Below, piece by piece: positions 3,129 through 31,077 of a DNA stretch of 32,352 bases. Origin of the DNA: a virus; the UHGV virus genome UHGV-0176217. One strand, written 5' to 3'. The position numbers were made by a program, and so were the translations under genes. How positions within the stretch are numbered: the first letter of the stretch is position 1; every line of letters begins with the position of its first letter. The notes under the pieces were generated by a model that saw only the letters and a list, made by a program, of their open reading frames with translations, was not told where the DNA came from and did not search any database.

Positions 3129-5409
3129 GACTCGGGGGCGTATTGCCCCCTCGCTAGCCCTGCCAATATCTAAGCGCACCGGCGATACTTTCGTTGGTGC
3201 TTATCCCTGGAATGCTCCCCGCGCTGCCATTGGCCGTGACAGACCCCTTACACGTGCCGAATTCCGTCAGGTGCAAGGTGTTTTATACCGGATTGACCGC
3301 CTGCCTTTCTTTCTTAAGACGTTGTTTACTTCCCGTTATAACTTCATTCGCCGCACAAAGAGCCCGCTCGGGGCGCTCTATTTCCTGAAAAACACCTTTG
3401 AGCGGAAGCTGTTGCCGCGTCTTGAGCGCGTTAACGAGCTGTGCGGGATGAATGAATCTGCGTCGATTGGTTTCTTGTCTGAGCATGACGAATATGCGCG
3501 CTTGCCTGATATGAATGACAAAGAGCTGAAAAAATTTGCGGCCAGAATTGCCGCGCAGCTCTGGCGTAAATACGAGGAACTCAGCGACGAATGGGCTGAG
3601 GCATTCGGCGGTAAAGAGACCCTTTTCACCGATGAGGCGCAGGTGCACATATATGGTCAGGTGGCTGGTGTTGCACGCGCGTTCAACTTAACCCCGCTCT
3701 ACTGGAAAAAATACCGTAAGGGTCAGATGACGATCCGCATGGCGTTTTCCGCTATTTCCCGTCTGATAAAAGATGATTGGTGGGTTAACCAGCTCAAGGC
3801 GCAGCGTATGCGCTGGCGTGAGGCGCTGCTTATCGCTGCCGGTGAAGTCAACAAAGACCGTTCACCTTACGCCAGCAAAATGGCGATCCGCGAGGTTCAC
3901 TCGCGCCGGCTGGCTAATCTCGAATACCTGAAATCCTGTGAGCTGGAAAACAAAGTTACCGGCGAACGTATCGACCTCATCAGTAAAGTCATGGGGAGTA
4001 TTTCAAACCCTGAAATACGCCGTATGGAGCTGATGAATACCATTGCCGGAATTGAACGCTATGCGGCCAGCGTTGGTGATGTGGGAATGTTTATCACGCT
4101 GACCACGCCGTCGAAGTATCACCCGACCCGACAGGTCGGCAAAGGTGACAGCAAAACGGTGCAGCTCAATCACGGCTGGAACGAAACCGCATTCACCCCT
4201 AAAAACGGCCAGCGCTATCTGTGCCGAATCTGGAGCCTGATGCGTACCGCTTTCAAAGATAACGATTTGGAAGTGTATGGGATGCGCGTTGTCGAGCCGC
4301 ACCACGACGGCACGCCACACTGGCATATGATGCTTTTTTGCAAACTCGGTCAGCGTAAAGCTATCAACGAAATTATGCGTCGTTATGCCCTCAAAGAGGA
4401 CGGACACGAAAAGGGCGCGGCAAAACAGCGCTTTGAGTCGCGTCACCTTAATCAGGGGGGCGCGGCGGGTTATATCGCCAAATACATTGCCAAAAATATC
4501 GACGGCTACGCGCTTGACGGTCAGCTCGATCACGATACCGGCAAACCTCTGAAAGATACGGCCGCAGCCGTAACCGCATGGGCGTCTACATGGCGTATCC
4601 CTCAGTTTAAACCGATTGGCCTCCCGACAATGGGCGCTTACCGCGAACTGCGTAAGCTGCCGCGCGGGGTGAGTATCGCCAGCGAGTTTGACGACCGTGT
4701 CGAGGCCGTCCGGGCTGCTGCAGATGAGGGGGAATTTGACCTGTACATCAGCGCGCAGGGTGGGGCAAACATGCCGCGTGATGCTCAGGTGGTCAGGGTC
4801 GCCCGTAAGGTGACGGATGAGGTAAACGAATACGAGGAGGATATCGAGAAAGTGGTCGGTATTTATGCCCCTCATCTTGGGGCGAGCCGCGTACATGTAA
4901 CCCGTACAGCGGAATGGCGCATAGTTCCAAAGGTTTTGGCCGTTGAGCCTTTGACCTTAAAAAGCGGCGCTGCCGCGCCTCGGAGTCCTGTCAATAACTG
5001 TGGAAAGCTCACCGACGGTGATACTCCAGTTATGACACCCACACCGTCTGAGCAAGCCGCAGCGGTGTTAAATCTGATTGAGCGCGGAGTTATCGGATGG
5101 AATGAGCCAGACGTCATGAAGGCGCTTAACGGTGCGTTAAGAGCTGGCATCCCTCGCAAAAATCGCCAGCAAAGAAGCAATGCGCTACTCAAAACGAGTG
5201 AGCAAGCTCCATCAGCCAGGATGACAAAACCAGAAAGGGATCGCGTGGCGAAAATTCGTTTCGATTTGGCTCAGGAGGGCATTACCCCGGAACGGTGGGA
5301 GCTCGAAGCGCTGGTGCGTGGGGCAACGGTGATTTATGGCGATAAAAAATTCAAATACGCGGCTGCTGATGAGTGGCCGGGATTCTCAATTCAAGAGGAG
5401 TGGAAATAA
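3118..5409 (+). CDS. A: Replication initiation endonuclease A (rolling-circle Rep, HUH superfamily)
   Basis: 763 aa from ATG at 3118 (MAVETRG...); HUH-like motif TPHWHMMLF; paired active-site tyrosines in GYIAKYIAKN; N-terminus matches P2 A as recalled. Confidence 0.9.
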   Translation: MAVETRGRIAPSLALPISKRTGDTFVGAYPWNAPRAAIGRDRPLTRAEFRQVQGVLYRIDRLPFFLKTLFTSRYNFIRRTKSPLGALYFLKNTFERKLLPRLERVNELCGMNESASIGFLSEHDEYARLPDMNDKELKKFAARIAAQLWRKYEELSDEWAEAFGGKETLFTDEAQVHIYGQVAGVARAFNLTPLYWKKYRKGQMTIRMAFSAISRLIKDDWWVNQLKAQRMRWREALLIAAGEVNKDRSPYASKMAIREVHSRRLANLEYLKSCELENKVTGERIDLISKVMGSISNPEIRRMELMNTIAGIERYAASVGDVGMFITLTTPSKYHPTRQVGKGDSKTVQLNHGWNETAFTPKNGQRYLCRIWSLMRTAFKDNDLEVYGMRVVEPHHDGTPHWHMMLFCKLGQRKAINEIMRRYALKEDGHEKGAAKQRFESRHLNQGGAAGYIAKYIAKNIDGYALDGQLDHDTGKPLKDTAAAVTAWASTWRIPQFKPIGLPTMGAYRELRKLPRGVSIASEFDDRVEAVRAAADEGEFDLYISAQGGANMPRDAQVVRVARKVTDEVNEYEEDIEKVVGIYAPHLGASRVHVTRTAEWRIVPKVLAVEPLTLKSGAAAPRSPVNNCGKLTDGDTPVMTPTPSEQAAAVLNLIERGVIGWNEPDVMKALNGALRAGIPRKNRQQRSNALLKTSEQAPSARMTKPERDRVAKIRFDLAQEGITPERWELEALVRGATVIYGDKKFKYAAADEWPGFSIQEEWK

Positions 5410-5873
5410 TGAGCAAAATCCATGAGTTAAAAATTGCACCTGAGCATTTTAACGCTGTGATATCTCAGGAAAAACGTGCTGAATTTCGTCTCAATAACCG
5501 CGATTATTCTAGCGGTGATATTCTCGGGTTGCATGAATGGGAACCGGTAAACGGATATACCGGGAAACGTGTATCAGTGAGGGTGACATACGTTACTGAT
5601 TTATCTGAATGGGCGGAAAATTATGTGATGCTGAGTTTTCAGTTAATGATGCCAGATGTCAAGTGCGGTATGTCCCTAATGAACTGGAAAGAGTTAAGCG
5701 AGAAGGGGCTTGTTTTCAGAATTAATCACGAAATTCTACACCCGTTAGGGCTGGCTATTGGATTTGAAACACTTAACGGCGTTTCGGGGGGGGCTTATGT
5801 CGCTTGTGATGGTGTCTGGCAATATTCCGACAAGCTGGTCGCAGATGCTAAAAAAAATGGGTGGTTAAAATGA
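5409..5873 (+). CDS. DUF3850 / ASCH-PUA-like domain protein with ~65 aa C-terminal extension
   Basis: N-terminus HELKI.PEHF.AV.S..K.AEFR.N.RD...GD.L.L.EWEP is the DUF3850 signature; start overlaps the A stop; occupies the tin/old position. Confidence 0.7.
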   Translation: MSKIHELKIAPEHFNAVISQEKRAEFRLNNRDYSSGDILGLHEWEPVNGYTGKRVSVRVTYVTDLSEWAENYVMLSFQLMMPDVKCGMSLMNWKELSEKGLVFRINHEILHPLGLAIGFETLNGVSGGAYVACDGVWQYSDKLVADAKKNGWLK

Positions 5874-6094
5874 GTCATATGCGAATGATGCCAGTGCCGC
5901 CCGTACATTCAACGCAAAACATTAAGCTGATGGCCGTCGTGCATCGCCTGCAACAAATTATGATTAACGAGAATCTGACCCCTGACGAACTGGTCGGGTG
6001 TGCCGGTGTCGTCCGGGATAATCACCGCAAATACAGCGATATCAGCAATCCGAAAATTGAGGCGTTTCGGCCATCAAATATGGCGAAGCCATAG
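5870..6094 (+). CDS. Small hypothetical protein, translationally coupled (ATGA overlap)
   Basis: ATG at 5870 overlaps the TGA of the upstream gene; no recognisable motif. Confidence 0.35.
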   Translation: MSHMRMMPVPPVHSTQNIKLMAVVHRLQQIMINENLTPDELVGCAGVVRDNHRKYSDISNPKIEAFRPSNMAKP

Positions 6095-6376
6095 CAAACG
6101 CCGCCGGTGCTGAAACTTGTTTTCAGTGCCAGCGGGGTTGACCAACGAGCCCCGCGAGGCGTTAGCCTGTCCCGTAGAGATCACCCCCAACCGGAACGAT
6201 TAAAGCAGGTTTTATTATGCCATTTTCCCACAATTTCCCGGTTTTTTAGCCGTGCATGCAACAGGTGCATTGTTTTGCATGCGTTGGGGATGCCCGTTCT
6301 GGCCGTGCGCCGCCAGAGCTAGCGCGGATCCAGAGTGGTCATGCAACTGCATTAAAACCGACCCATAAAGCGGGCA

Positions 6377-6395
6377 GGCGAGGCGGGGATAGCAT
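6377..6395. other. P2/P4-type cos site (19-nt cohesive-end sequence)
   Basis: GGCGAGGCGGGGATAGCAT followed by TGCGCGCTGA; near-identical to the P2/P4 cohesive end GGCGAGGCGGGGAAAGCAC TGCGCGCTGA as I recall it. Confidence 0.55.
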
Positions 6396-6484
6396 TGCGC
6401 GCTGAGGGGTTTTAAATTTCATTTTTTTTAGTATTATCAAAAAGAATAATTCAGAATTATCTCAAAAAAGGCAAGGGGCACAAT

Positions 6485-7816
6485 ATGGTGATTAATGAAG
6501 TTAGACGGATAGGTAGTGGCGGTTTTGGTAATGTTGATTTAGTGCAAGATGTCCTTAGCGGAAAGCAATTCGCTAGGAAAACATTTTCTATAAATCAAGC
6601 TCAACCGCTGCCTCCTGATTTGGCAGAGAATGTAAAAAAAAGATTTATAAGAGAGGCAAACGTACAGTATAGACTTACGCATAAAAATATTGTACCTGTC
6701 CTTTTTAAAGATCTAAATAGTAACCCTCCATCTTTCCTTATGCCAGTAGCAGCATCTAGCCTTGATAAAGATATTGCGCAAAGTAGAAACTTGAATGGAT
6801 TATTTTTAAGAGCAATAATGGATATTTTGTCTGGACTCGAAGAATTGCACACGTTGCAAATTTATCATCGTGATCTCAAACCACAAAATGTGCTTAGATT
6901 TGATTCAAGTGAAGGTCCATATTACGCTATTAGCGACTTTGGCCTGATGTCAGTAAAAGATACTCAAATTTCAGCACTAACCCATACAGGTATGAAAATG
7001 GGTTCTGATTACTACACCGCACCTGAAATTGTTTCAGATCTTAGAAAAGCTAGTATTGCTTCAGATATTTATTCTTTGGGGTGTATACTGCATGACTTTG
7101 TAGGCACGGATGAAAGAATTCCTTGTGGTGAAATTAATAATGATTCGAGCGCATATGCGCATATTTTACGGGTTTGTACTCGTAGAGATCCTTCAAGAAG
7201 ATTTCCAAGTGTTGCAGCATTAAGGGATGCAATTCTTAGTATTGATCCTTCTACAGTAATACATCTCTCTGCTGAGGTTGGAACATATACTACAGCATTA
7301 GATAGTGACGCCGGAATTAATGTTGAAACATGGAGGGAAATAATCAATTTCGTAGAGGATAATATTGGACAAGAAAACTCCAAGGTGATATTTCAGCGTC
7401 TAACTTTAAACAGGATTAATGAGATAATCGCTCATGATACCACGCTAGCTTGTCGTCTTGGTGAAGCATATGGTCGTTGGGTTGCGGATGGAGTATTTTC
7501 ATTCGAACAGTGTGATGGGATTTGCACTCGTCTCGAACAATTTTTACAACTTCACGATTTGAACTGTAAAGCCGAAATTATTATAGCTATGCTTCTTATG
7601 GGAACGTCGCATAATCGTTGGTATGTCGAGAGACGCTTCATGAGCGTGGCAGGGCACGACATGACTCCAGAACTGGCTAAAAGGCTTGCTTTGGAAATGA
7701 GCATACTTGAGGGTAGAATGTGTGCAGCGGTGAGTCATCTCCAAAGATCAATTGGTGCCACACCTGATATGCTTCATCCTGAACTTTTCGCAATGATACA
7801 AAGAGTATGCCATTGA
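6485..7816 (+). CDS. Eukaryotic-like (Hanks-type) Ser/Thr protein kinase with ~170 aa C-terminal domain of unknown function
   Basis: Gly loop GSGGFGNV; FARK lysine; conserved Glu (REANVQY); catalytic loop YHRDLKPQNVL; DFG (ISDFGLM); APE (YTAPEIV); DIYSLGCIL; AT-rich gene; RBS AAGGGG. Confidence 0.85.
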   Translation: MVINEVRRIGSGGFGNVDLVQDVLSGKQFARKTFSINQAQPLPPDLAENVKKRFIREANVQYRLTHKNIVPVLFKDLNSNPPSFLMPVAASSLDKDIAQSRNLNGLFLRAIMDILSGLEELHTLQIYHRDLKPQNVLRFDSSEGPYYAISDFGLMSVKDTQISALTHTGMKMGSDYYTAPEIVSDLRKASIASDIYSLGCILHDFVGTDERIPCGEINNDSSAYAHILRVCTRRDPSRRFPSVAALRDAILSIDPSTVIHLSAEVGTYTTALDSDAGINVETWREIINFVEDNIGQENSKVIFQRLTLNRINEIIAHDTTLACRLGEAYGRWVADGVFSFEQCDGICTRLEQFLQLHDLNCKAEIIIAMLLMGTSHNRWYVERRFMSVAGHDMTPELAKRLALEMSILEGRMCAAVSHLQRSIGATPDMLHPELFAMIQRVCH

Positions 7817-8517
7817 TTAATAAATTTGCTTACACATCTCCGGGACCTAGAAGCCACAACCAAGACTCTATCTTGGTTGAGATTTTACCCAGCGCTGATT
7901 TGTTATGTGGCGTTGCGGATGGTGTCGGCGGGAATTTGGGGGGAGAAACAGCCTCTCAATTAGCACTGGACATTATTGCTGCGGCCATGCGTTCGGATAG
8001 TAGCATCTCTCTTCTCGAAGCCATAACCCGAGCTGATGAAGCGATCAAAGATGCTGCTCAGAAAGATGGAAAATTGGCTGGAATGGCAAGTACTGTGACT
8101 GTAACAAAGCTTATCGGGAATAAATTGATAGGAGCCAATTGTGGAGATTCTCGGACTTATCTATTAAGAGGAAGTGGCGTCAAACAACTTTCCTATGATC
8201 ACAGTGAAGTAGCTCGTCTACTACGTGAAGGTAAGCTGACGAAAGAGACTGCAGTTGATTACCCTCGTAAGAACATTCTTGATAGTGCCCTTGGTGCACA
8301 CAAGCCTCTACAAGTCCATGAATTTGAATGTAATTTACAGATAGGTGATAGAATAGCTTTGCTATCTGACGGGGTTTCGTCAGTTGTGAGCAAAAAAGAT
8401 TTCCGAGATCTTTCAGTGAAATATAATTCGTTAAATGAGTATGGTGCTAGTGTAATAGAGCTTGTTGAGAGTAGAGAGACTAGGGATAATTATTCATTGA
8501 TTATTTTTGAAATTTAG
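7807..8517 (+). CDS. PP2C-family (PPM) Ser/Thr phosphatase
   Basis: Motifs SHNQDS, ADGVGG, CGDSRTYL, LLSDGVSS; start overlaps the kinase stop by 10 nt. Confidence 0.85.
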   Translation: MPLINKFAYTSPGPRSHNQDSILVEILPSADLLCGVADGVGGNLGGETASQLALDIIAAAMRSDSSISLLEAITRADEAIKDAAQKDGKLAGMASTVTVTKLIGNKLIGANCGDSRTYLLRGSGVKQLSYDHSEVARLLREGKLTKETAVDYPRKNILDSALGAHKPLQVHEFECNLQIGDRIALLSDGVSSVVSKKDFRDLSVKYNSLNEYGASVIELVESRETRDNYSLIIFEI

Positions 8518-8529
8518 TTTTGTAATATA

Positions 8530-8558
8530 GGTGCGTTATTTAAAATGACGCACCTTTT
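8530..8558 (+). terminator. Intrinsic terminator after the kinase-phosphatase operon
   Basis: Stem GGTGCGT / ACGCACC with 11-nt loop, then TTTT. Confidence 0.5.
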
Positions 8559-8569
8559 CTCATTTTGTT

Positions 8570-9577
8570 TTAAATAGAATATTTTTCAAATTGTATTACA
8601 TCTTCTTGAAGCCAGTCGTTAATCTCTTTGAAACGCTCCTGCAATGGCGTCAGCTCGTTACGCACAAACACCCGCGCCACCTTCTCAACGTCACCCATTG
8701 AGCCGATGTTTTCCGGCTTGCCGCCCATCAGCTGAAACGGCACGCGGTGCGCATCGAGCAGGTCAGCGGCACTGACCTTTTTGATGTTGAAAAAATCATC
8801 CTTCGTGGCGACTTCACTCAACGGCACAATCTTGATCCCGTCTGGCTTTCCGTTGGGCGCGTAGAAAAACAGGTTCTTAAAATTCCCCAGCCCTTTTGAG
8901 TCGCGCATCGCGTTACGGAGCGATTCAACGTCGGTGCTACTCTGTGCCGCGTCGGTGACATACATGATATACCCCGCGTGCGCCCCGTTCTGGTAATACT
9001 TACGACGAAATAACGTGGCGGATTCATTCAGCCAGGCTGAATTGAGTGCGCTCAGGTATTCCGGCATCCCGTAAAGTTCCTGATTGATATCGGGCTCAAG
9101 CAGATGACACACCGAGCCGGGCGCGAACGGGTGCGGCTGGGTGTAGCTCGATACGTACCAGTAAACGCCATCCTCGACACCCCGGCGGGTGTATTTGGCC
9201 GGGGAGGTTTCCAGTTTTAATAGCTGGCCGGTGACGCTCATGCGCTTCTCAAGATAGCCGTTGGCAAAGACCAGATAATCGAGCACAAGACGGCTGAAAT
9301 CCTGACGCGACAGCAACGGGTGCGGAATGTAGGTGCTCGCCAGAATGTTACGCTTCACGTAAATCGGCGAGCTGTGGTGAACGGCGGCGCGCAGGCTTTT
9401 TGCCAGTCCCGAGAAATTGACCGGCGGCTCGTACCATTTCCCGTTATTGATGCACTCGACATAGTCGAGGATGTCGCGGCGATCCAGAACGGGGGACGGC
9501 TCACCAAAGGTAAACGCCTCCATTTTTTGCGGTGCGCTGGCGGTCATTGTGGCGGGTTTCTTCTGTCGTTTTTTCAT
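8570..9577 (-). CDS. Q: Portal protein (P2 gpQ-like)
   Basis: 335 aa from ATG at 9577, directly after the P stop; first in P-Q leftward operon order. Confidence 0.85.
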   Translation of the reverse strand: MKKRQKKPATMTASAPQKMEAFTFGEPSPVLDRRDILDYVECINNGKWYEPPVNFSGLAKSLRAAVHHSSPIYVKRNILASTYIPHPLLSRQDFSRLVLDYLVFANGYLEKRMSVTGQLLKLETSPAKYTRRGVEDGVYWYVSSYTQPHPFAPGSVCHLLEPDINQELYGMPEYLSALNSAWLNESATLFRRKYYQNGAHAGYIMYVTDAAQSSTDVESLRNAMRDSKGLGNFKNLFFYAPNGKPDGIKIVPLSEVATKDDFFNIKKVSAADLLDAHRVPFQLMGGKPENIGSMGDVEKVARVFVRNELTPLQERFKEINDWLQEDVIQFEKYSI

Positions 9578-9578
9578 C

Positions 9579-11348
9579 TTAGTTAATATCCAGAATTGAG
9601 GTTGATTGCATGCCGCTACCGGCGGAAAGTGGCTCATTTAACAGGGCGTGCATGGTCGCCCACGCAATATCCGCGTGGCTGGCCTCTTCGCTGCGGCTGG
9701 CCTCATAGGTGGCACTGCGCCCGCTGCTGGTCATGGTTTTACGAATCGCCATAAACGACTGCGTGATGTCGGTTGCACCGGCGTCATATTCCAGACACCC
9801 ACGTCGGATGGTGTCTTTCGCTTTCAGCACCATCGCGGTTTTCATTTCCGGCGTGTAGCGAATGGCGCGGGCTGCCGGAAAGAAGGAGCGCACGAGCTGG
9901 TAAACCCCCTGGCCGATGCCGGTTGCATCGATGCCGATATACTCGACGCAATATTTCTCTGTCAGCTCGCGGATAGCCTCGGCCTGCGTTGCAAAATCCA
10001 TCCCTTTCCACTGGTGACGCTCAAGGATGCGGAACTTGCCACCGGCAACCAGCGGCGGAGCCAGTACCGCACAGCCAGCACTGTCGCCGGTGTGTGACGG
10101 GTCATAGCCAATCCAGACCGGGCGCCAGTTAAACGGACGGTCAGAGAACGGTGCAAAGTCTTCCCATTCTTCCATCGCATCGACCATGCAGCGCTGCAGC
10201 TCCTCGAACGGAAATACAGACGCTTTATCGTCGACGAACTCGCACATGAAGAGGTTGCGAAAGTCGTCGGCGCTGTTTTCCTGTTTCAGCTGATCCAGAT
10301 TAAACAGCGTACATCCTCCGGCGAGGGCGTCCTCGATGGTGACAATCTGCCGCCACTGTCCGTCCGGGCATAACACCCCACCGGCGAGCGCCTTGTGACT
10401 GATATCGATGTCGACGCGCTCACTCGCGCTGATGCGTCCCCGGTTAAACAGCTCACCTGACCAGAACGGATACGCACCGTGTGCCAGCGTTGAGGGTGTT
10501 GAAAAGTAGGTGGTGCGCAGGTGGGACTGTGACGCCATCCCCGACGCCACTTTGCGCAGCCTCTGAAAGTTGGGGATCCAGAAGATTTCATCGACATACA
10601 GGTCGCCGTTGTGGCTCTGCGCGGTGTTGGAGTTTGTCCCGAGGAAAATCAGCTCTGCGCCGTTATTGCCGATGACAATCGGGTCGCCTGACAGGTCGAC
10701 GTCGACCATGCGTGCAAAGGCGATGATGTACTTTCGGAACACGTAAGCCTGCGTCTTACTGGCGGATAAAAATATCTGGTTTTGCCCGGTTTTGAGGGCG
10801 CGCAGCAATGACTCGCGGGCAAAGTAAAATGTCGCGCCAATCTGGCGTGATTTGAGGATGTGGCGAATACGGTGCGCGATACCGGCCTTGTGCCAGTTGA
10901 GCTGATACTCAAAGGACTGGTCGAGGAAAATCTCTTCCAGCTTTTCGATGGCCTCATCGCTGAAAAAATTCCGTTTCGGCTTACGGCGATCGCCCTTATT
11001 ACGGCTGGCAATACTGGGGTTTAAATCCACCTCGTTTCCGGTCTGGCCGTAGCGGTTGATGCGCGCGAATCGCTCCATCTGGCGCGACAAAAAATCAGCG
11101 ACCTTGAAGTCATGCGGTGTCAGGTCAGGCTTTGCATACAGCTGAATCAGGCGCGCCTCGAGCGTCGTTTCCACGCGGTTAAGCGGGGCGGTTTCCTCCC
11201 ACCCGTCGCGCTGTTTCCAGCTCTGCACGGTCGGGCGCTTGACCTGCAGCGTGTCGGCGATTTGTGGCACGGAAAATCCCTGCCAGAACAACAGACGCGC
11301 CTGTCGTCGCGGGTCATGTAAAAGGGAGAGGTCAGTCGAAATGGTCAT
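9579..11348 (-). CDS. P: Terminase large subunit (P2 gpP-like)
   Basis: ATG at 11348 (MTISTDLSLL...) with GAGG RBS; the ORF-track start at 11378 is TTG; N-terminus matches P2 P as recalled. Confidence 0.9.
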   Translation of the reverse strand: MTISTDLSLLHDPRRQARLLFWQGFSVPQIADTLQVKRPTVQSWKQRDGWEETAPLNRVETTLEARLIQLYAKPDLTPHDFKVADFLSRQMERFARINRYGQTGNEVDLNPSIASRNKGDRRKPKRNFFSDEAIEKLEEIFLDQSFEYQLNWHKAGIAHRIRHILKSRQIGATFYFARESLLRALKTGQNQIFLSASKTQAYVFRKYIIAFARMVDVDLSGDPIVIGNNGAELIFLGTNSNTAQSHNGDLYVDEIFWIPNFQRLRKVASGMASQSHLRTTYFSTPSTLAHGAYPFWSGELFNRGRISASERVDIDISHKALAGGVLCPDGQWRQIVTIEDALAGGCTLFNLDQLKQENSADDFRNLFMCEFVDDKASVFPFEELQRCMVDAMEEWEDFAPFSDRPFNWRPVWIGYDPSHTGDSAGCAVLAPPLVAGGKFRILERHQWKGMDFATQAEAIRELTEKYCVEYIGIDATGIGQGVYQLVRSFFPAARAIRYTPEMKTAMVLKAKDTIRRGCLEYDAGATDITQSFMAIRKTMTSSGRSATYEASRSEEASHADIAWATMHALLNEPLSAGSGMQSTSILDIN

Positions 11349-11410
11349 GGTTGCCTCGTGTCGGTGAATACGGGACAAGGCTAAGGAAATAGCCGGGCAT
11401 TATCGCTAAC

Positions 11411-11433
11411 CCCCTGTTGTGTCAGGGGTTGCA
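11411..11433. promoter_or_regulatory. Candidate Ogr-dependent late promoter element in the divergent P/O region
   Basis: Dyad CCCCTG-ttgtgt-CAGGGG containing GTTGTGTCAG, ~100 bp upstream of O; the same 10-mer recurs upstream of FI. Confidence 0.35.
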
Positions 11434-11514
11434 CTTCCGCAAGCGGTGGCTGATGCGGGGCGGAGTCGGGAAACTACCCCCGAACCGAAAACCTAACATC
11501 AGGACACCTGAACA

Positions 11515-12369
11515 ATGGCAAAGAAAGTTTCTAAATGGTTTCGCATCGGCGTCGAAGGTGACACCTGCGATGGCCGTGTCATCAGCGGTGATGACATTCA
11601 GGAAATGGCGGATTCCTTCGACCCGCGCGTCTACGGTTGCCGCATTAACCTCGAACATATCAAAAGCCTCTGGCCTGACAGTCCGTTTAAGCGTTATGGC
11701 GACGTGACCGAAGTCAAAGCGGAAATCATCAGCGATGACTCTGCGCTGAACGGTAAAAAGGCGCTGTTTGCCAGAATCGCCCCGCTTGATGAGCTGGTCA
11801 GCATGGTGCGCGCCGGTCAGAAGGTTTACACTTCGATGGAAATTCGCCCGAATTTCTCCAACAGCGGCAAATGCTACCTGATTGGCCTCGCCGTCACGGA
11901 TGACCCGGCAAGCCTCGGCACCGAATACCTGGAATTCTGCAGCCGCGCCAGCCAGAACCCGCTCGCCGGTAAAAAAGACCAGCCGGGCGATCACTTCTCG
12001 GTGGCTTCCCTTGCTGAGCTGGAATTCGAGGACGTCCCCGATACCATGCTCAACAGCCTGACCGACAAGGTCAAAGCCATTTTCAACCGTAAACAGGCCA
12101 GTGACGATGCGCGCTTTGCCGATGTGCATGAAGCGGTGACGGCGGTCTCTGAGCAGGTGCAAACCAACCTGACCGCCACTGAAACGCGCGTCACCGAACT
12201 CGAAACCGCGTTTGCGCAGTTTAAGCAGGATGTGACCCGCCAGACCGAAGAAAACGCGCAGGCGTTTACCTCGCTGAAACGTTCCCTCGATAACACCGAA
12301 AGCCATCGCCAGCCGCGCCGCGAGAAATCGAAAGGCGGAACGGGCGACGAGCTGCTGACCAACTGCTGA
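11515..12369 (+). CDS. O: Capsid scaffolding protein (P2 gpO-like)
   Basis: 284 aa, same length as P2 O; position between P and N. Confidence 0.85.
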   Translation: MAKKVSKWFRIGVEGDTCDGRVISGDDIQEMADSFDPRVYGCRINLEHIKSLWPDSPFKRYGDVTEVKAEIISDDSALNGKKALFARIAPLDELVSMVRAGQKVYTSMEIRPNFSNSGKCYLIGLAVTDDPASLGTEYLEFCSRASQNPLAGKKDQPGDHFSVASLAELEFEDVPDTMLNSLTDKVKAIFNRKQASDDARFADVHEAVTAVSEQVQTNLTATETRVTELETAFAQFKQDVTRQTEENAQAFTSLKRSLDNTESHRQPRREKSKGGTGDELLTNC

Positions 12370-12429
12370 TAACCCGCCGGGTGCGTGTCACCCGGCCTGA
12401 TGCCCTTTTTTAGAAAAACAGGAATAACA

Positions 12430-13497
12430 ATGCGTAAAGATACCCGCTTTAAATTTAATGCTTACCTGTCCCGCGTGGCGGAGCTGAACGGCGTCGACAC
12501 CGACGATGTGGCAAAGAAATTCACCGTTGAGCCGTCCGTGACGCAAACCCTGATGACCACCCTGCAGGCGTCATCCGCGTTTCTGACCAAAGTGAACATC
12601 GTGCCGGTCGACGAGCTGAAAGGCGAAAAAGTCGGGGTGGGCGTCAACGGTACGATTGCCAGCACCACCGATACCGCCGCTGATGATGAGCGTAAGACCG
12701 CAGACTTCACCGCGCTCGAATCCAACAAATACGAATGTGCGCAAATCAACTTCGATTTCCACATCCGTTACAAACAGCTCGACCTGTGGTCGCGATTCCA
12801 GGACTTTCAGACCCGTATCCGTGACGCGATTATCAAGCGACAGTCGCTCGATTTCATCATGGCCGGTTTCAACGGTATCACCCGGGCGGAGACTTCAAAC
12901 CGTAAAAACAATCCGATGCTGCAGGATGTGGCGGTGGGCTGGCTGCAGAAGTACCGCAATGAAGCTGCCGCGCGCGTGATGTCAAAAATCACCGACGAAG
13001 ACGGCAAGATTATTTCCGATGTGATCCGCGTGGGTAAAAACGGTGACTATGAAAACCTCGATGCGCTGGTCATGGATGCGACCACCAACCTGATTGATGA
13101 GATTTATCAGGATGACCCGGAGCTCGTCGTTATCACTGGCCGTAAGCTGATGGCGGATAAATATTTCCCGCTTGTCAACAAGGCACAGGAAAACAGCGAA
13201 ACGCTGGCCGCTGACATCATCATCAGCCAGAAGCGGATCGGCAACCTCCCCGCCGTGCGTGTGCCGTACTTCCCGGCGAATGCCCTGATGGTGACGCGTC
13301 TCGATAACCTGTCGATTTACTTCATGGATGACGCACACCGCCGCGCCATCATTGAAGAGCCGAAAAAAGACCGTATCGAAAACTACGAGTCAATGAATAT
13401 TGACTATGTGATCGAGGCTTACGCGGCCGGTTGCCTGATTGAGAACATCAATTTAGGTGACTTCACCGCACCTGCCGCCCCGGAAAGCGGAGAGTAA
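12430..13497 (+). CDS. N: Major capsid protein (P2 gpN-like)
   Basis: 355 aa from MRKDTRFKFNAYLSRVAELNG...; closely matches P2 N from memory; AGGA RBS. Confidence 0.9.
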   Translation: MRKDTRFKFNAYLSRVAELNGVDTDDVAKKFTVEPSVTQTLMTTLQASSAFLTKVNIVPVDELKGEKVGVGVNGTIASTTDTAADDERKTADFTALESNKYECAQINFDFHIRYKQLDLWSRFQDFQTRIRDAIIKRQSLDFIMAGFNGITRAETSNRKNNPMLQDVAVGWLQKYRNEAAARVMSKITDEDGKIISDVIRVGKNGDYENLDALVMDATTNLIDEIYQDDPELVVITGRKLMADKYFPLVNKAQENSETLAADIIISQKRIGNLPAVRVPYFPANALMVTRLDNLSIYFMDDAHRRAIIEEPKKDRIENYESMNIDYVIEAYAAGCLIENINLGDFTAPAAPESGE

Positions 13498-13500
13498 GCC

Positions 13501-14253
13501 ATGACGAGTCCCGCAGCGCGTCACATGATGCGGGTCTCGGCCTCTGAAACTGCGCGGCGGGCTGCTGCTCCGCTGCGCAATGCAACTGCCTATGAGCAGA
13601 TGCTCGTCAAGCTGGCCGCAGACTGTCGCACGTTAAAACAAATCCGTTCCAATGAGCGCAAGGCAGACAAAAAGCGTGAGCTGCTACCGTTTTATCTGCC
13701 GTGGGTGGGTGGCGTTCTCAGCTCCGGCAAAGGGGCGCAGGATGACATTGTCATGACCGTCATGCTCTGGCGTCTTGATGCTGATGACATTGCCGGTGCG
13801 CTGGAAATCGCCCGCTACGCGATGACGTATGGCCTGACCATGCCGACCGGCGGCCACCGCCGCACAACGCACTATCTGCTGGCCGAAGAGGTCGCCCTGT
13901 CAGCGCAGCGCCTGCTTGATGCAAAACAGCCTGTCGGGCTGTCGCTCCTGCTCGACACCATCGCACTGACCGAACGCGCAGATATGCCCGATATCGTGCG
14001 CGCGAAGCTGCACAAAATCACCGGCTACGTGCTGCGTGATGCTGGCAACCTGACTGACGCGCTGGCGCACCTGCAGCGAGCGATCCAGTTAGAGCGGGCT
14101 ATCGGTGTGAAAAAGGATATTGAGCAGCTTGAACGCGCGCTGAAACCCAAACCAGAACCCGCACCCAAACAGAATAAACCGCGCCCGCGCCGTGCCGCTA
14201 AACCGGCGGCACGGCGCGGGCGTCCCCCGAAAGCGGCAAAAGCCGCAGGTTAA
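13501..14253 (+). CDS. M: Terminase small subunit (P2 gpM-like)
   Basis: 250 aa; basic C-terminal tail; position after N. Confidence 0.8.
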   Translation: MTSPAARHMMRVSASETARRAAAPLRNATAYEQMLVKLAADCRTLKQIRSNERKADKKRELLPFYLPWVGGVLSSGKGAQDDIVMTVMLWRLDADDIAGALEIARYAMTYGLTMPTGGHRRTTHYLLAEEVALSAQRLLDAKQPVGLSLLLDTIALTERADMPDIVRAKLHKITGYVLRDAGNLTDALAHLQRAIQLERAIGVKKDIEQLERALKPKPEPAPKQNKPRPRRAAKPAARRGRPPKAAKAAG

Positions 14254-17324: not shown

Positions 17325-18374
17325 ATGTCTAACGATGATAAAACATTGAATTTATTCCCCATAGATTATCCATTTGAGACTTTATGTTCTAGGATGAAGT
17401 CCAATCCCATCAAACTAAAACTGAATCCAGACTTTCAAAGAAAGTACAAATGGGATCAGGACGGATGGCTGCGATCTTCAAAATTCATTGAATCTTGTTT
17501 AATGCGTATTCCTCTTCCATCTTGTTACTTTGCAGAAGATGATAGCGGCAATCATATTGTAATTGATGGTGTTCAGCGATTAACCACAATACAGAAATTT
17601 TTTGATGACGAGTTCGCTTTGGAGGGAATGACTACATTTAAAGAGCTTGAAGGGAAAAAGTTTTCTGAATTAGGATCTCTACGTTCAGAGTTAGAGTCGA
17701 CAACAATAAGATGCATTGTTCTAAGAAAAGAAAATCCCAAAAAATTAATAAGAGAGATATTTTCTAGACTCAATCAGGGGGCAGTTAAACTTTCTGACCA
17801 AGAAATAAGACATGCGTTATATCCGGGAGGGTTTGATGAATTATTAGAAGAGTTAGGTAATATTGATGCCATTAAAAATTTTGGTTTGGCGGAAACAACT
17901 ACAGTAAAAAGAGATAGTCGTGAGCCAGACGAACAAGTTTTGCGTTTTTTTGCATTTTATGAAGATAACTTTTTTGATTACTTTGATAGCTCCTTGAAAG
18001 AATTCTTGGATGATCATATGGAAAAATTTTCAGACTTAAAAGATGATGAACTGAATATTATGAGGGAGAGATTCAAAACATCATTATCTAAGTGTGAAAA
18101 AATATTTGGTGAAGATGTATTTACAAACCCTACAGTTAGGAGAAAACGTAAAGGGTTAGTTCATTATGACATTTTAATGCCTACAATTGGCAAGTTAAAT
18201 GATGATATTGTAAATGAAAAGTCCGAACAAATACGGAATGCTTGGTTTACTCTTTGTTCAAGTGCTGAGTTCAAAAAAACTTTATCAGGTGGGCTACAGA
18301 ATAAGAGTTCGGTGATGAAGCGTAGGGCTAGTTGGGTGGCACTTCTTAAGGAAGTTATTGATGGAAAATACTGA
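17325..18374 (+). CDS. DUF262 (ParB-like NTPase/nuclease domain) protein lacking a fused C-terminal HNH/DUF1524 domain
   Basis: DUF262 signature ...NPDFQRKYKW.......FIESCLMRIPLPS.YFAED..G.HIVIDGVQRLTTIQKFF; AAGGA RBS; strongly AT-rich. Confidence 0.8.
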   Translation: MSNDDKTLNLFPIDYPFETLCSRMKSNPIKLKLNPDFQRKYKWDQDGWLRSSKFIESCLMRIPLPSCYFAEDDSGNHIVIDGVQRLTTIQKFFDDEFALEGMTTFKELEGKKFSELGSLRSELESTTIRCIVLRKENPKKLIREIFSRLNQGAVKLSDQEIRHALYPGGFDELLEELGNIDAIKNFGLAETTTVKRDSREPDEQVLRFFAFYEDNFFDYFDSSLKEFLDDHMEKFSDLKDDELNIMRERFKTSLSKCEKIFGEDVFTNPTVRRKRKGLVHYDILMPTIGKLNDDIVNEKSEQIRNAWFTLCSSAEFKKTLSGGLQNKSSVMKRRASWVALLKEVIDGKY

Positions 18375-18939
18375 ATACTATGATGGATATCGTTCATTAT
18401 TTTTATCCTTAAAAGAAATTATTAAGGAGACGGAGCAACAGGCTATCCTTGAGGAAAATGAATTCTTCAATAAGAACATTAATTTTTTTGTTAAATCGTA
18501 TCTTATTACACTCTGCACTTATTTAGAGTCGTATTTGACTGAGGTTGCAACATGGCACTGCGATACCATCAATCGCAGGCTTAAAGCAGCCTGCTTGCCA
18601 CACAATTTTTTGCTTTGGCGAGTCAAAAAAGATGTTAAAGATAAGGAGTTGAAATATATAGATGCTGATTTAAAGGTTGATAAAAGTGAGGTGTCGGATA
18701 GCCTATCTGGTAATCCTTACAAGACGATTAAGGCATTTTCTTATTTGGGTGTTAATCTTTTGAATTCGGCGGAATTTAATGCGAATAAGGATGTTGTGAA
18801 TGCAGTGGTTGTAAAGAGAAATAACATTATTCATCATAACGACAATGCAAATGATATTAGTCTCACTGACGTAAGTGGTTATGTAGATCTGTTTGTATCC
18901 TATATGGCCGCGATAGATAATATGGTTTGTGGAAAATAA
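18361..18939 (+). CDS. Partner protein with C-terminal R-x4-H (HEPN-like) motif; putative RNase effector
   Basis: ATG at 18361 overlaps the upstream stop by 14 nt, AAGGA RBS; motif KRNNIIHH near the C-terminus; AT-rich. Confidence 0.6.
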   Translation: MENTEYYDGYRSLFLSLKEIIKETEQQAILEENEFFNKNINFFVKSYLITLCTYLESYLTEVATWHCDTINRRLKAACLPHNFLLWRVKKDVKDKELKYIDADLKVDKSEVSDSLSGNPYKTIKAFSYLGVNLLNSAEFNANKDVVNAVVVKRNNIIHHNDNANDISLTDVSGYVDLFVSYMAAIDNMVCGK

Positions 18940-30437: not shown

Positions 30438-30659
30438 ATGTTTCATTGTCCGAAATGCCATCATGCCGCCCACGCCCGCACGAGTCGCTATTTTACTGAT
30501 ACCACAAAAGAGCGGTATCACCAGTGCACAAACATCAACTGCAGTTGCACGTTTGTGACCACTGAAACAGTCGAGCGTTTCATCGTATCATCGGGCGAGG
30601 TAGTACCCGCGCCGCCGCATCCAACAACGTCAGGTCAGCAGCAAATTCAATGGATGTGA
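30438..30659 (+). CDS. ogr: Ogr zinc-finger late transcription activator
   Basis: 73 aa from MFHCPKCHHAAHARTSRY.TDTTKERYHQC.N.NCS.TF...E.V.R.IV; Cys4 pattern; GGAGA RBS; an upstream ATG at 30396 lacks an RBS. Confidence 0.85.
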   Translation: MFHCPKCHHAAHARTSRYFTDTTKERYHQCTNINCSCTFVTTETVERFIVSSGEVVPAPPHPTTSGQQQIQWM

Positions 30660-30761
30660 GAAGAAGTTGGTAGGTGGAATCTGGGTACGATATTTGTTAA
30701 TACTAGCTTGTTGTAACAAAAATTAATTCTGACCTAACAGTACATTACGGAAAACGTATCC

Positions 30762-30971
30762 ATGACTTTTGATGAATATATGCAAAAAACCAGAGAAATA
30801 AATGAGCAACTTCAAGAGATTTCTATGCTAACGGCAAATCAAGCACTAACAAATTGCGCAAACTCATCCAATCCCGGCTTTGTTGATCTGATGCGTCGTC
30901 ATGCAGAATTGACAATGCGCTCGTTTAAGCTTACTGAAGAGATGATGAAACAGTTATCTATTGATAACTAA
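30762..30971 (+). CDS. Small AT-rich hypothetical ORF downstream of ogr
   Basis: 69-aa ORF in an AT-rich segment; weak RBS; no recognisable motif. Confidence 0.3.
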   Translation: MTFDEYMQKTREINEQLQEISMLTANQALTNCANSSNPGFVDLMRRHAELTMRSFKLTEEMMKQLSIDN

Positions 30972-31077
30972 TAATCAAACACTAGGCCAAAAAGGTGTAA
31001 GAGCACTAGACACAATGATTGATACTCTTATTCTTTAAAGCAAATCAAAATTTTCTACCATTTTTTTTATAAATAAA

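Follow-up and report, generated by a model that had tools for sequence, protein, structure and literature searches.

A kinase-first Ser/Thr kinase and PP2C phosphatase pair in the defence hotspot of a P2-like Escherichia coli prophage is a conserved mobile unit and a candidate abortive-infection module

Introduction

What does a P2-like prophage gain from a eukaryotic-like protein kinase gene that overlaps a gene for the opposing phosphatase, both lodged between the cos site and the portal gene? This question is raised by UHGV-0176217, a virus genome of 32,352 nucleotides (nt; "the window" refers to this whole stretch of DNA), which is a P2-like prophage in strain KV7 of Escherichia coli (NZ_LT795502.1; from pig faeces in Denmark), with yegR/yegS adjoining its integration site. 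A first-pass annotation of the window had proposed that the Ser/Thr kinase and PP2C phosphatase genes at positions 6485-8517 are a candidate kinase-based anti-phage system. In P2, the stretch that separates the replication endonuclease gene from the portal gene is known as defence hotspot #1, where tin, old and four validated systems reside (Vassallo 2022, PMC9519451), and this A-Q hotspot was likewise described by Rousset 2022 (PMC9122126). In the RefSeq annotation of KV7 the kinase-PP2C cassette has the replication endonuclease gene (A) on one side and the portal gene (Q) on the other. The cassette is thus cargo of P2 defence hotspot #1. The pair that it encodes is a conserved mobile unit.

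Results

The features of the cassette and its boundaries are as follows; lengths are given in amino acids (aa) where they refer to proteins.

6377..6395, plus strand: cos site of the P2-like prophage (GGCGAGGCGGGGATAGCAT), left edge of the cassette slot
6405..6484, plus strand: AT-rich cassette leader, with a Shine-Dalgarno-like AAGGGG about 7 nt 5' of the kinase ATG (read from the sequence)
6485-7816, plus strand: Ser/Thr kinase gene, 443 aa (open reading frame, ORF)
6485..7249, plus strand: kinase domain, RD-type Hanks, aa 1-255 (Pfam Pkinase, alignment, Foldseek)
7238..7816 (stop codon included), plus strand: kinase C-terminal domain, aa 252-443, predicted all-helical ARM/HEAT-like solenoid
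7807-8517, plus strand: PP2C (PPM) Ser/Thr phosphatase, 236 aa, catalytic domain only (Pfam, NCBIfam, motifs)
8529..8555, no strand assigned: probable bidirectional terminator, hairpin and T-run (12-bp stem with 5 GC pairs, then TTTCTCATTT)

The profile searches suggested in the first-pass annotation placed both proteins over the Pfam cut-offs of the expected families. In the kinase, Pfam Pkinase (PF00069) matched aa 5-222 at 1e-28 (100.9 bits; cut-off 31.7). The catalytic positions were invariant in alignment A1, which comprises 24 full-length family members from several phyla (Enterobacterales, Pseudomonas, Vibrio, Rhizobiales, Bacteroidota and others): G10/G12/G13/G15 of the glycine loop, K32 of FARK, E57, H128-R129-D130, K132, N135, D151-F152-G153, A179-P180-E181, D194 and R239. 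Judging by these residues, the protein is an intact Hanks-type (eukaryotic-like) Ser/Thr kinase of the RD type, as had been claimed. Foldseek likened its kinase domain to DAPK, Nek7 and PknB with a probability of 1.00. The activation loop (aa 154-178), which is disordered in the AlphaFold2 (AF2) model, is rich in conserved Ser/Thr residues, of which S163, T166 and S174 are invariant in A1.

The 236-aa protein matched the Pfam families PP2C_2 (PF13672; 4.6e-11, 43.1 bits, cut-off 24) and PP2C (PF00481; 3.1e-09, 37.3 bits, cut-off 20.3), and also SpoIIE at 7.3e-07, over the curated cut-off. The motifs R15/N18/D20, D38-G-x-G41-G42, G113-D-S-R116, D188-G189 and D227-N228 were invariant in alignment A3, composed of nine PP2C partners of family kinases, and by these motifs the protein is an intact PP2C/PPM phosphatase, in agreement with the earlier description. 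Its NCBIfam match to Stp1_PP2C_phos reached 166.5 bits against a cut-off of 230 bits; therefore, it is a PP2C without the status of an Stp1 equivalog. The kinase stop codon (TGA, 7814-7816) lies 3' of the PP2C start codon (ATG, 7807), which gives the 10-nt overlap noted at the first reading, and the overlap couples the two genes translationally. An alternative PP2C start (TTG, 7813) would reduce the overlap to 4 nt, and the homologues begin near 7813. A chance origin of the two ORFs is excluded because they are long, match their domains strongly and have hundreds of full-length homologues.

A word-indexed search returned 786 relatives of the kinase. The best 120 of them, one fragment aside, were about 435-472 aa long and at least 47% identical to the window kinase over at least 96% of the query. 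Of the 67 metagenome loci that offered 750 nt or more of downstream sequence, 65 had a PP2C gene directly 3' of the kinase gene, and its start was visible in all seven shorter metagenome loci. The same arrangement was found in every family locus of the genome collection with downstream room (7/7) and in all context look-ups, which covered genomes, integrative and conjugative elements (ICEs) and plasmids, among them three small Acinetobacter plasmids that carry the pair and of which two were inspected. The genome-collection loci derive from a first contig scan with generic kinase motifs, which retrieved mostly unrelated kinases; only L002-L009 were true members. These observations establish the kinase and PP2C genes as a conserved mobile unit.

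The two exceptions among the 67 loci differ in kind. L182 is a decayed copy that adjoins IS-like (insertion sequence) ORFs. The other, L137:1254-2579, is the only intact family kinase lacking a downstream PP2C gene (976 nt were available), and it has HLD instead of HRD and an entirely different activation loop. As a single case, it fits an action of PP2C on the activation loop of the kinase; the L137 kinase may be in decay, or changes in it may have made the phosphatase dispensable. Two further candidates for a deviating architecture were discarded: the PP2C gene apparently missing in L097 proved intact by tblastn, the gap being a gene-calling artefact, and L010 is no split architecture but a distant relative whose sequence is broken by an IS transposase. 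In P0125, an N-terminally truncated metagenome protein of 510 aa, the end of the kinase C-terminal domain is in frame with a complete PP2C. This may be a fusion of kinase and phosphatase that exists in nature, or an artefact of sequencing or gene calling.

Four comparisons with the window copy gave the following identities for whole kinase/C-terminal domain/PP2C.

89/87/76%
72/57/57%
54/37/48%
50/37/39%

Divergence is thus faster in the solenoid and in the PP2C than in the whole kinase, as would be expected of recognition surfaces.

The C-terminal domain had been put at about 170 aa without a recognisable motif. In fact it spans about 190 aa (aa 252-443). Searches of this region found no Pfam match even at E ≤ 10 and no sequence relative in the PDB. 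A1 revealed a strikingly conserved core consisting of W332, C343-D344, G373-T-S-H376-N-R-W-Y-V-E382-R, R400, H418, S422-I423 and H431, in which the motif that starts at G373 is invariant. With the family alignment as input, AF2 folded the domain into eleven helices (pLDDT, a predicted score in the local distance difference test, 94.1; predicted template modelling score, pTM, 0.89), and the region is confidently predicted to be an ARM/HEAT-like helical solenoid. We presume that it serves as a protein-binding sensor or specificity domain. A profile of the domain yielded only 357 hits at E ≤ 0.001 among 1.84 billion representative proteins. In the best 150 of these, every full-length hit was about 425-510 aa long and carried the domain at approximately residues 250-445, behind the kinase. 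The domain is thus family-specific, since these full-length hits place it only behind a kinase of the family found in the window.

The position of the cassette agrees with the proposed insertion between cos and the portal gene, in the A-Q cargo region. The match to the P2 cos sequence at 6377-6395 has two mismatches, and no match was obtained in 100 shuffles. Homology with cassette-free P2-like prophages passes through cos and stops at about 6404, and the cassette fills the cos-Q interval to the right of cos. The synteny comparison recommended in the first-pass annotation covered two other P2-like prophages (L109, L110): their cos-Q gap is only about 140 nt, and their own cargo lies to the left of cos. 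With its insertion point on the right side of cos, the cassette would form the leftmost part of the genome in virion DNA. The GC content is 0.37-0.45 over 6501-8500 in comparison to 0.54-0.61 in most of the structural-gene backbone, as the earlier description of an AT-rich pair on a GC-rich backbone implied, so that the cassette lies about 15-20 points under its surroundings. At its right end, the PP2C gene and the portal gene (Q) converge on the hairpin at 8529-8555 (the portal ORF, on the minus strand, ends at 8570), and this hairpin probably closes the cassette as a bidirectional terminator.

The last approximately 70 nt of the portal gene are AT-rich as well and differ from those of L109 and L110; the cassette may have brought a new 3' end of Q with it.

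The nucleotide sequence of the cassette was present in one of 5426 complete E. coli genomes, and the adjacent cos flank was present in 233. The KV7 record annotates neither an old nor a tin gene, just as the first reading had stated. The kinase, the PP2C and two small upstream proteins are listed in the supplementary hotspot table of PMC9122126 for two draft E. coli assemblies, by domain only, and the RefSeq accessions of the window proteins are entries in that table.

Two further stretches of cargo were identified in the prophage.

5373-6094, plus strand: two small genes between A and cos, encoding a 166-aa DUF3850/ASCH and DUF7415 protein and a 77-aa ORF without a family match
17325-18939, plus strand: second AT-rich island (GC 0.32-0.39), between the S-like virion-morphogenesis and V-like baseplate genes

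The 166-aa and 77-aa proteins had no PADLOC match, and their genes did not accompany the pair in the other contexts looked at. The second island encodes a 349-aa GmrSD_N/DUF262 protein (PADLOC NsnA, 6.6e-80; PD-T4-2_A, 9.5e-43), whose gene is overlapped by that of a 193-aa HEPN_RiboL-PSP protein (Pfam 9e-18; no PADLOC match), and it looks like a two-gene defence system of the PD-T4-2/Nsn type. Its site coincides with neither of the two published P2 hotspots, which are at A-Q and at Z/fun. Since this island encodes a PD-T4-2/Nsn-like system, the AT-rich inserts of the KV7 prophage can be regarded as defence-type cargo. A GC dip at 30500-31000 contains only an Ogr-like gene and a 69-aa ORF.

Outside the window, the family reaches Pseudomonadota, Bacteroidota and Campylobacterota. 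Full-length identity is about 50% across Pseudomonadota and Bacteroidota and the distribution is patchy, which together indicate horizontal spread of the pair. A 97% identical copy occupies an integrase-bounded island beside DUF2971 and a SMEK_N and DUF2326 set, the 89% copy of Klebsiella pneumoniae adjoins Hachiman (HamA and the helicase HamB), an ArdC-like gene and a HEPN-RES protein, and a 72% copy has nSTAND3, an IS element and a helicase of the AAA_12/PLDc kind around it. In Vibrio cholerae an island that encodes a DNA polymerase B of the protein-primed type carries the pair at its edge, next to crcB and the thi operon. In Pseudomonas donghuensis a P2-like prophage or tailocin has the pair just past its tail and lysis genes. 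An alphaproteobacterial copy abuts an integrase, and the Cyclobacteriaceae copies adjoin TraG. The Acinetobacter plasmids are non-mobilisable Rep_3-type replicons of 8.6-16 kb, and on the 8.6-10 kb plasmids BrnT/BrnA is adjacent to the pair. The commonest context is that of Bacteroidota CTnDOT-like ICEs (L083-L088, about 6183-12039), which share a conserved, co-oriented block of integrase, ORF6N, RadC, ArdA, kinase, PP2C and traQ; the kinase cluster of these ICEs is indexed in 326 assembly-collection blocks, and the ICE variant with the pair is very common in gut metagenomes.

Two settings deserve separate mention. In the Cyclobacteriaceae loci L005:2695-7899 and L006:2682-7874, a conserved five-gene block lies upstream of the pair on the opposite strand and encodes an HTH_3 regulator, a PD-(D/E)XK/Cas4-like nuclease, proteins of about 765 aa and 380 aa without Pfam hits, and a 149-aa ORF; this block may be another uncharacterised defence set. 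In a metagenome-assembled genome of Pseudomonadales (L008:5326-7738, 11258-14140), the genes on either side of the pair are two for AvrB_AvrC-like effectors and one for a 961-aa ankyrin-repeat protein. This is an island of the eukaryote-interaction type and not a defence island.

The closest validated system to the window pair is KKP, in which the PP2C PfpC is followed by two kinases, PfkB, which contains an FHA domain, and PfkA, which contains a cold-shock domain (Guo et al., Nat Commun 2024, PMC11341870). The two kinases are jointly toxic and both are required, PfpC is the antidote, and the whole acts as a type VII toxin-antitoxin system that causes abortive infection; it is triggered when Gp59 of phage T4 binds and inhibits PfpC (PMC11341870). 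More than 1200 KKP clusters are known, about 90% of them in prophages, including those of P2 and P4 and also Pf6 and Mu-like ones, and KKP governs induction and lysogeny of the Pf prophage as well, via phosphorylation of MvaU (PMC11341870). The window pair resembles KKP in combining a Hanks-type kinase with a PP2C as prophage cargo, and KKP too sits between the GPA and portal genes in P2-like prophages; its logic of a PP2C antidote and a phage trigger plausibly fits the window pair. However, KKP consists of three genes in the order PP2C-kinase-kinase, whereas the window has two, kinase then PP2C. Moreover, the cold-shock domain of PfkA (PF00313) is missing from the window kinase (Pfam at E ≤ 0.1 for the whole protein and E ≤ 10 for aa 252-443), and the cassette has neither a second kinase nor an FHA domain (PF00498), the family-specific solenoid being present instead. 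The pair was set apart from KKP by gene count, gene order and domains, with KKP taken from its description.

Short kinase-PP2C pairs, distantly related to the window pair, occur in two lambdoid phages near the Q antiterminator and lysis genes, at L107:3968-5472 (Flotzy CDS0008/0009, Escherichia) and L108:3977-5496 (phiES15 gp21/gp22, Cronobacter). They share the kinase-then-PP2C order, with a 4-nt overlap, and likewise stand at a moron position of a temperate phage. Their kinases are 33% identical to the window kinase and have an unusual N-lobe insert in common with it (ARK..S.N....KRF.RE), and the PP2C proteins, of which that of Flotzy is annotated merely as hypothetical, are 24% identical. 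These kinases differ from the window kinase in being bare domains of 255-259 aa without the solenoid, and the pairs lie by Q and the lysis genes and not in a P2 hotspot. The comparison suggests a broader kinase-then-PP2C clade on temperate elements, in which the window family would be the branch that acquired the solenoid.

PADLOC 2.0 matched the window kinase to mad6 (4.2e-33), PD-T4-6 (up to 6.7e-32), Stk2 (1.1e-22) and MkoA. Assignment to any of these was rejected, given that the matches (about 80-113 bits) do not extend past the kinase domain and that short phage kinases of no relation give the same ones; the PADLOC check proposed earlier thus returned kinase-domain matches and no system membership. 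PD-T4-6 (Vassallo 2022) is represented by 26 PADLOC models, the listed hits of which align aa ~6-250 with a best score of 109 bits, and its two 443-position models match the window kinase only over profile positions 14-204 and 33-268. For Stk2 (Depardieu et al. 2016), a 500-position model matched only aa 47-246 against profile positions 160-347. The matches to these two systems do not exceed those to mad6 or PknB. Both are single-gene kinases without a cognate phosphatase and with unrelated C-terminal regions, whereas kinases of the window family have a PP2C partner in 65/67 loci. The TerY-P triad of a TerY vWA protein, a PP2C and a Ser/Thr kinase, reportedly described by Anantharaman in 2012 and tested by Gao in 2020, resembles the window pair in having a PP2C and a Hanks kinase in a defence-associated operon. 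It was rejected as an assignment, since the window cassette has no TerY/vWA or other third gene and its PP2C had no PADLOC match. The Stk kinase of prophage 933W, activated by infecting HK97 to cause abortive infection (Friedman et al. 2011, as cited in PMC9122126), can be likened to the window kinase by description only: it is a single gene of a lambdoid prophage, and the account consulted reports no PP2C partner. Literature searches for a named defence system made up of a kinase and a PP2C gene, and for the accessions of the window proteins in main texts, led to KKP and nothing else, and no name for or test of the pair was found. The first-pass statement that the pair is not a named system therefore stands, but it had missed the KKP precedent and the domain-level listing of Rousset 2022.

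Discussion

On balance, the reading that we favour, as somewhat more probable than not, is that the pair is a toxin-antitoxin-like abortive-infection (defence) module carried as prophage cargo. The mechanism is one that we infer from analogy with KKP and from context, building on the gene structure, catalytic residues, pair coupling, solenoid and genomic settings reported above. The RD-type Hanks kinase would be the effector or toxin, and the solenoid would be its protein-recognition domain. The co-translated PP2C would hold the system off by dephosphorylating the kinase activation loop and cellular substrates. A heterologous phage protein would tip this balance, either by engaging the solenoid, so that the kinase becomes active, or by blocking the PP2C as Gp59 blocks PfpC. 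Unchecked Ser/Thr phosphorylation of essential host (possibly phage) proteins would then lead to growth arrest and aborted infection, and the lysogen population and the resident P2-like prophage would be protected. A defence function appears likely in view of the location in hotspot #1, the second defence island of the same prophage, the travel of the pair with defence islands, ICEs, prophage ends and plasmids, and the KKP precedent. The idea of a defence or conflict module has thus gained strong support from context, and its function continues to be inferred.

A more specific version of this mechanism is that the solenoid is a dedicated receptor to which a phage protein binds directly, and that this recognition activates the kinase. 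The pair would then be a self-resetting switch built on one kinase, with the PP2C setting the threshold and the recovery, and the growth arrest would be reversible and not suicidal. We put this forward tentatively and consider it less likely than not.

Several observations weigh against a defence module. A consensus scan of the leader (6405-6484) gave no sigma-70-like site, and read-through from the early operon across cos may reach the cassette, both of which bear on its expression in a lysogen. The AF2 model of the full-length kinase is confident within each domain and uncertain in their mutual orientation (pTM 0.54), and it therefore carries no information on autoinhibition. PADLOC 2.0, which recognised the kinase by its catalytic domain only, gave no match of any kind for the PP2C and has no PP2C model. 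Full-length members were absent from all 50,697 phage records, and among 2.9 million IMG/VR contigs only three contained one; ICEs and islands are the main carriers of the family, which is not typical phage cargo. The pair has ordinary-looking neighbours in L002 and L007, and the ArdA and RadC genes 5' of it in the Bacteroidota ICEs also fit an establishment or anti-defence role.

Alternatively, the pair could be a regulatory module for the life cycle of its element or the physiology of the host (lysogeny, induction or transfer), phosphorylating for example nucleoid proteins, and the exclusion of other phages would not be its primary role. This is suggested by KKP, which besides defence steers Pf induction via MvaU (PMC11341870), by the presence of the pair on ICEs, prophages and plasmids alike, and by the short kinase and PP2C pairs of lambdoid phages, whose neighbours are the Q antiterminator and lysis genes. 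However, the pair moves among a P2-like phage, a CTnDOT-like ICE, a Rep_3-type plasmid and islands, which have no common regulatory circuitry, it resides in variable cargo slots and not in regulatory regions, and only one of the 233 genomes with the cos flank has the cassette. We consider a life-cycle regulator unlikely.

Less likely still is a pure addiction pair, that is, a toxin-antitoxin system that stabilises its element by post-segregational killing without phage sensing. Many toxin-antitoxin systems from the hotspots have proved to be defence systems (PMC9519451), and chromosomal prophages would gain little from addiction. The opposing enzymes and the translational coupling do resemble a type VII toxin-antitoxin system, and the location on 8.6-16 kb non-mobilisable Acinetobacter plasmids by BrnT/BrnA, and on ICEs, would suit an addiction role; but the conserved 190-aa domain, a predicted protein-binding solenoid, would be unneeded, and the PP2C looks stable, with no sign of a labile antitoxin.

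It is also conceivable, at a distinctly low probability, that the pair assists the establishment of its element as an anti-defence function: the kinase would disable host immune or stress proteins on entry and the PP2C would limit the collateral damage. Phage kinases that modify host proteins exist, Gp0.7 of T7 being one. In the Bacteroidota ICEs the pair lies directly 3' of ORF6N, RadC and ArdA (326 blocks), and an ArdC-like gene is near the Klebsiella copy. The P2-like cassette, in contrast, is in a slot of defence genes that are expressed by the prophage, the neighbours in Enterobacterales islands are defence systems and not anti-defence genes, and none of the phage records surveyed, lytic genomes included, holds a full-length family member.

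Finally, an ordinary housekeeping pair of the Stk1/Stp1 (PknB-PASTA/IreP) type lodged in a prophage, which the best NCBIfam matches (PknB_PASTA_kin and Stp1_PP2C_phos) might suggest, is effectively refuted by the distribution (one of the 5426 E. coli genomes, always islands or mobile elements, and the lowered GC content), and equivalogy was rejected because the scores of 88.4 and 166.5 bits are far under the cut-offs of 450 and 230 and the kinase has no PASTA hits and no transmembrane region.

Returning to the abortive-infection module, the general logic of such a system is known from KKP. What is new here is a single-kinase, kinase-first kinase-phosphatase module with a family-specific ARM/HEAT-like domain, which is rare in E. 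coli and very common on the conjugative elements of gut Bacteroidota. Phosphorylation-based bacterial immunity has few characterised examples (Stk2, PD-T4-6 and KKP), and if the defence function is true, the pair would add to them a minimal system of two genes that includes a putative sensor domain of its own. If, in addition, the solenoid is the receptor, the family would be a distinct and widespread defence family that ranges from P2-like prophages to CTnDOT-like ICEs, in contrast to KKP, where the phosphatase is the sensor. A defined phenotype would matter for phage therapy, for our picture of mobile-element dynamics in the microbiome and for the use of kinase-phosphatase balance as a sensor of infection.

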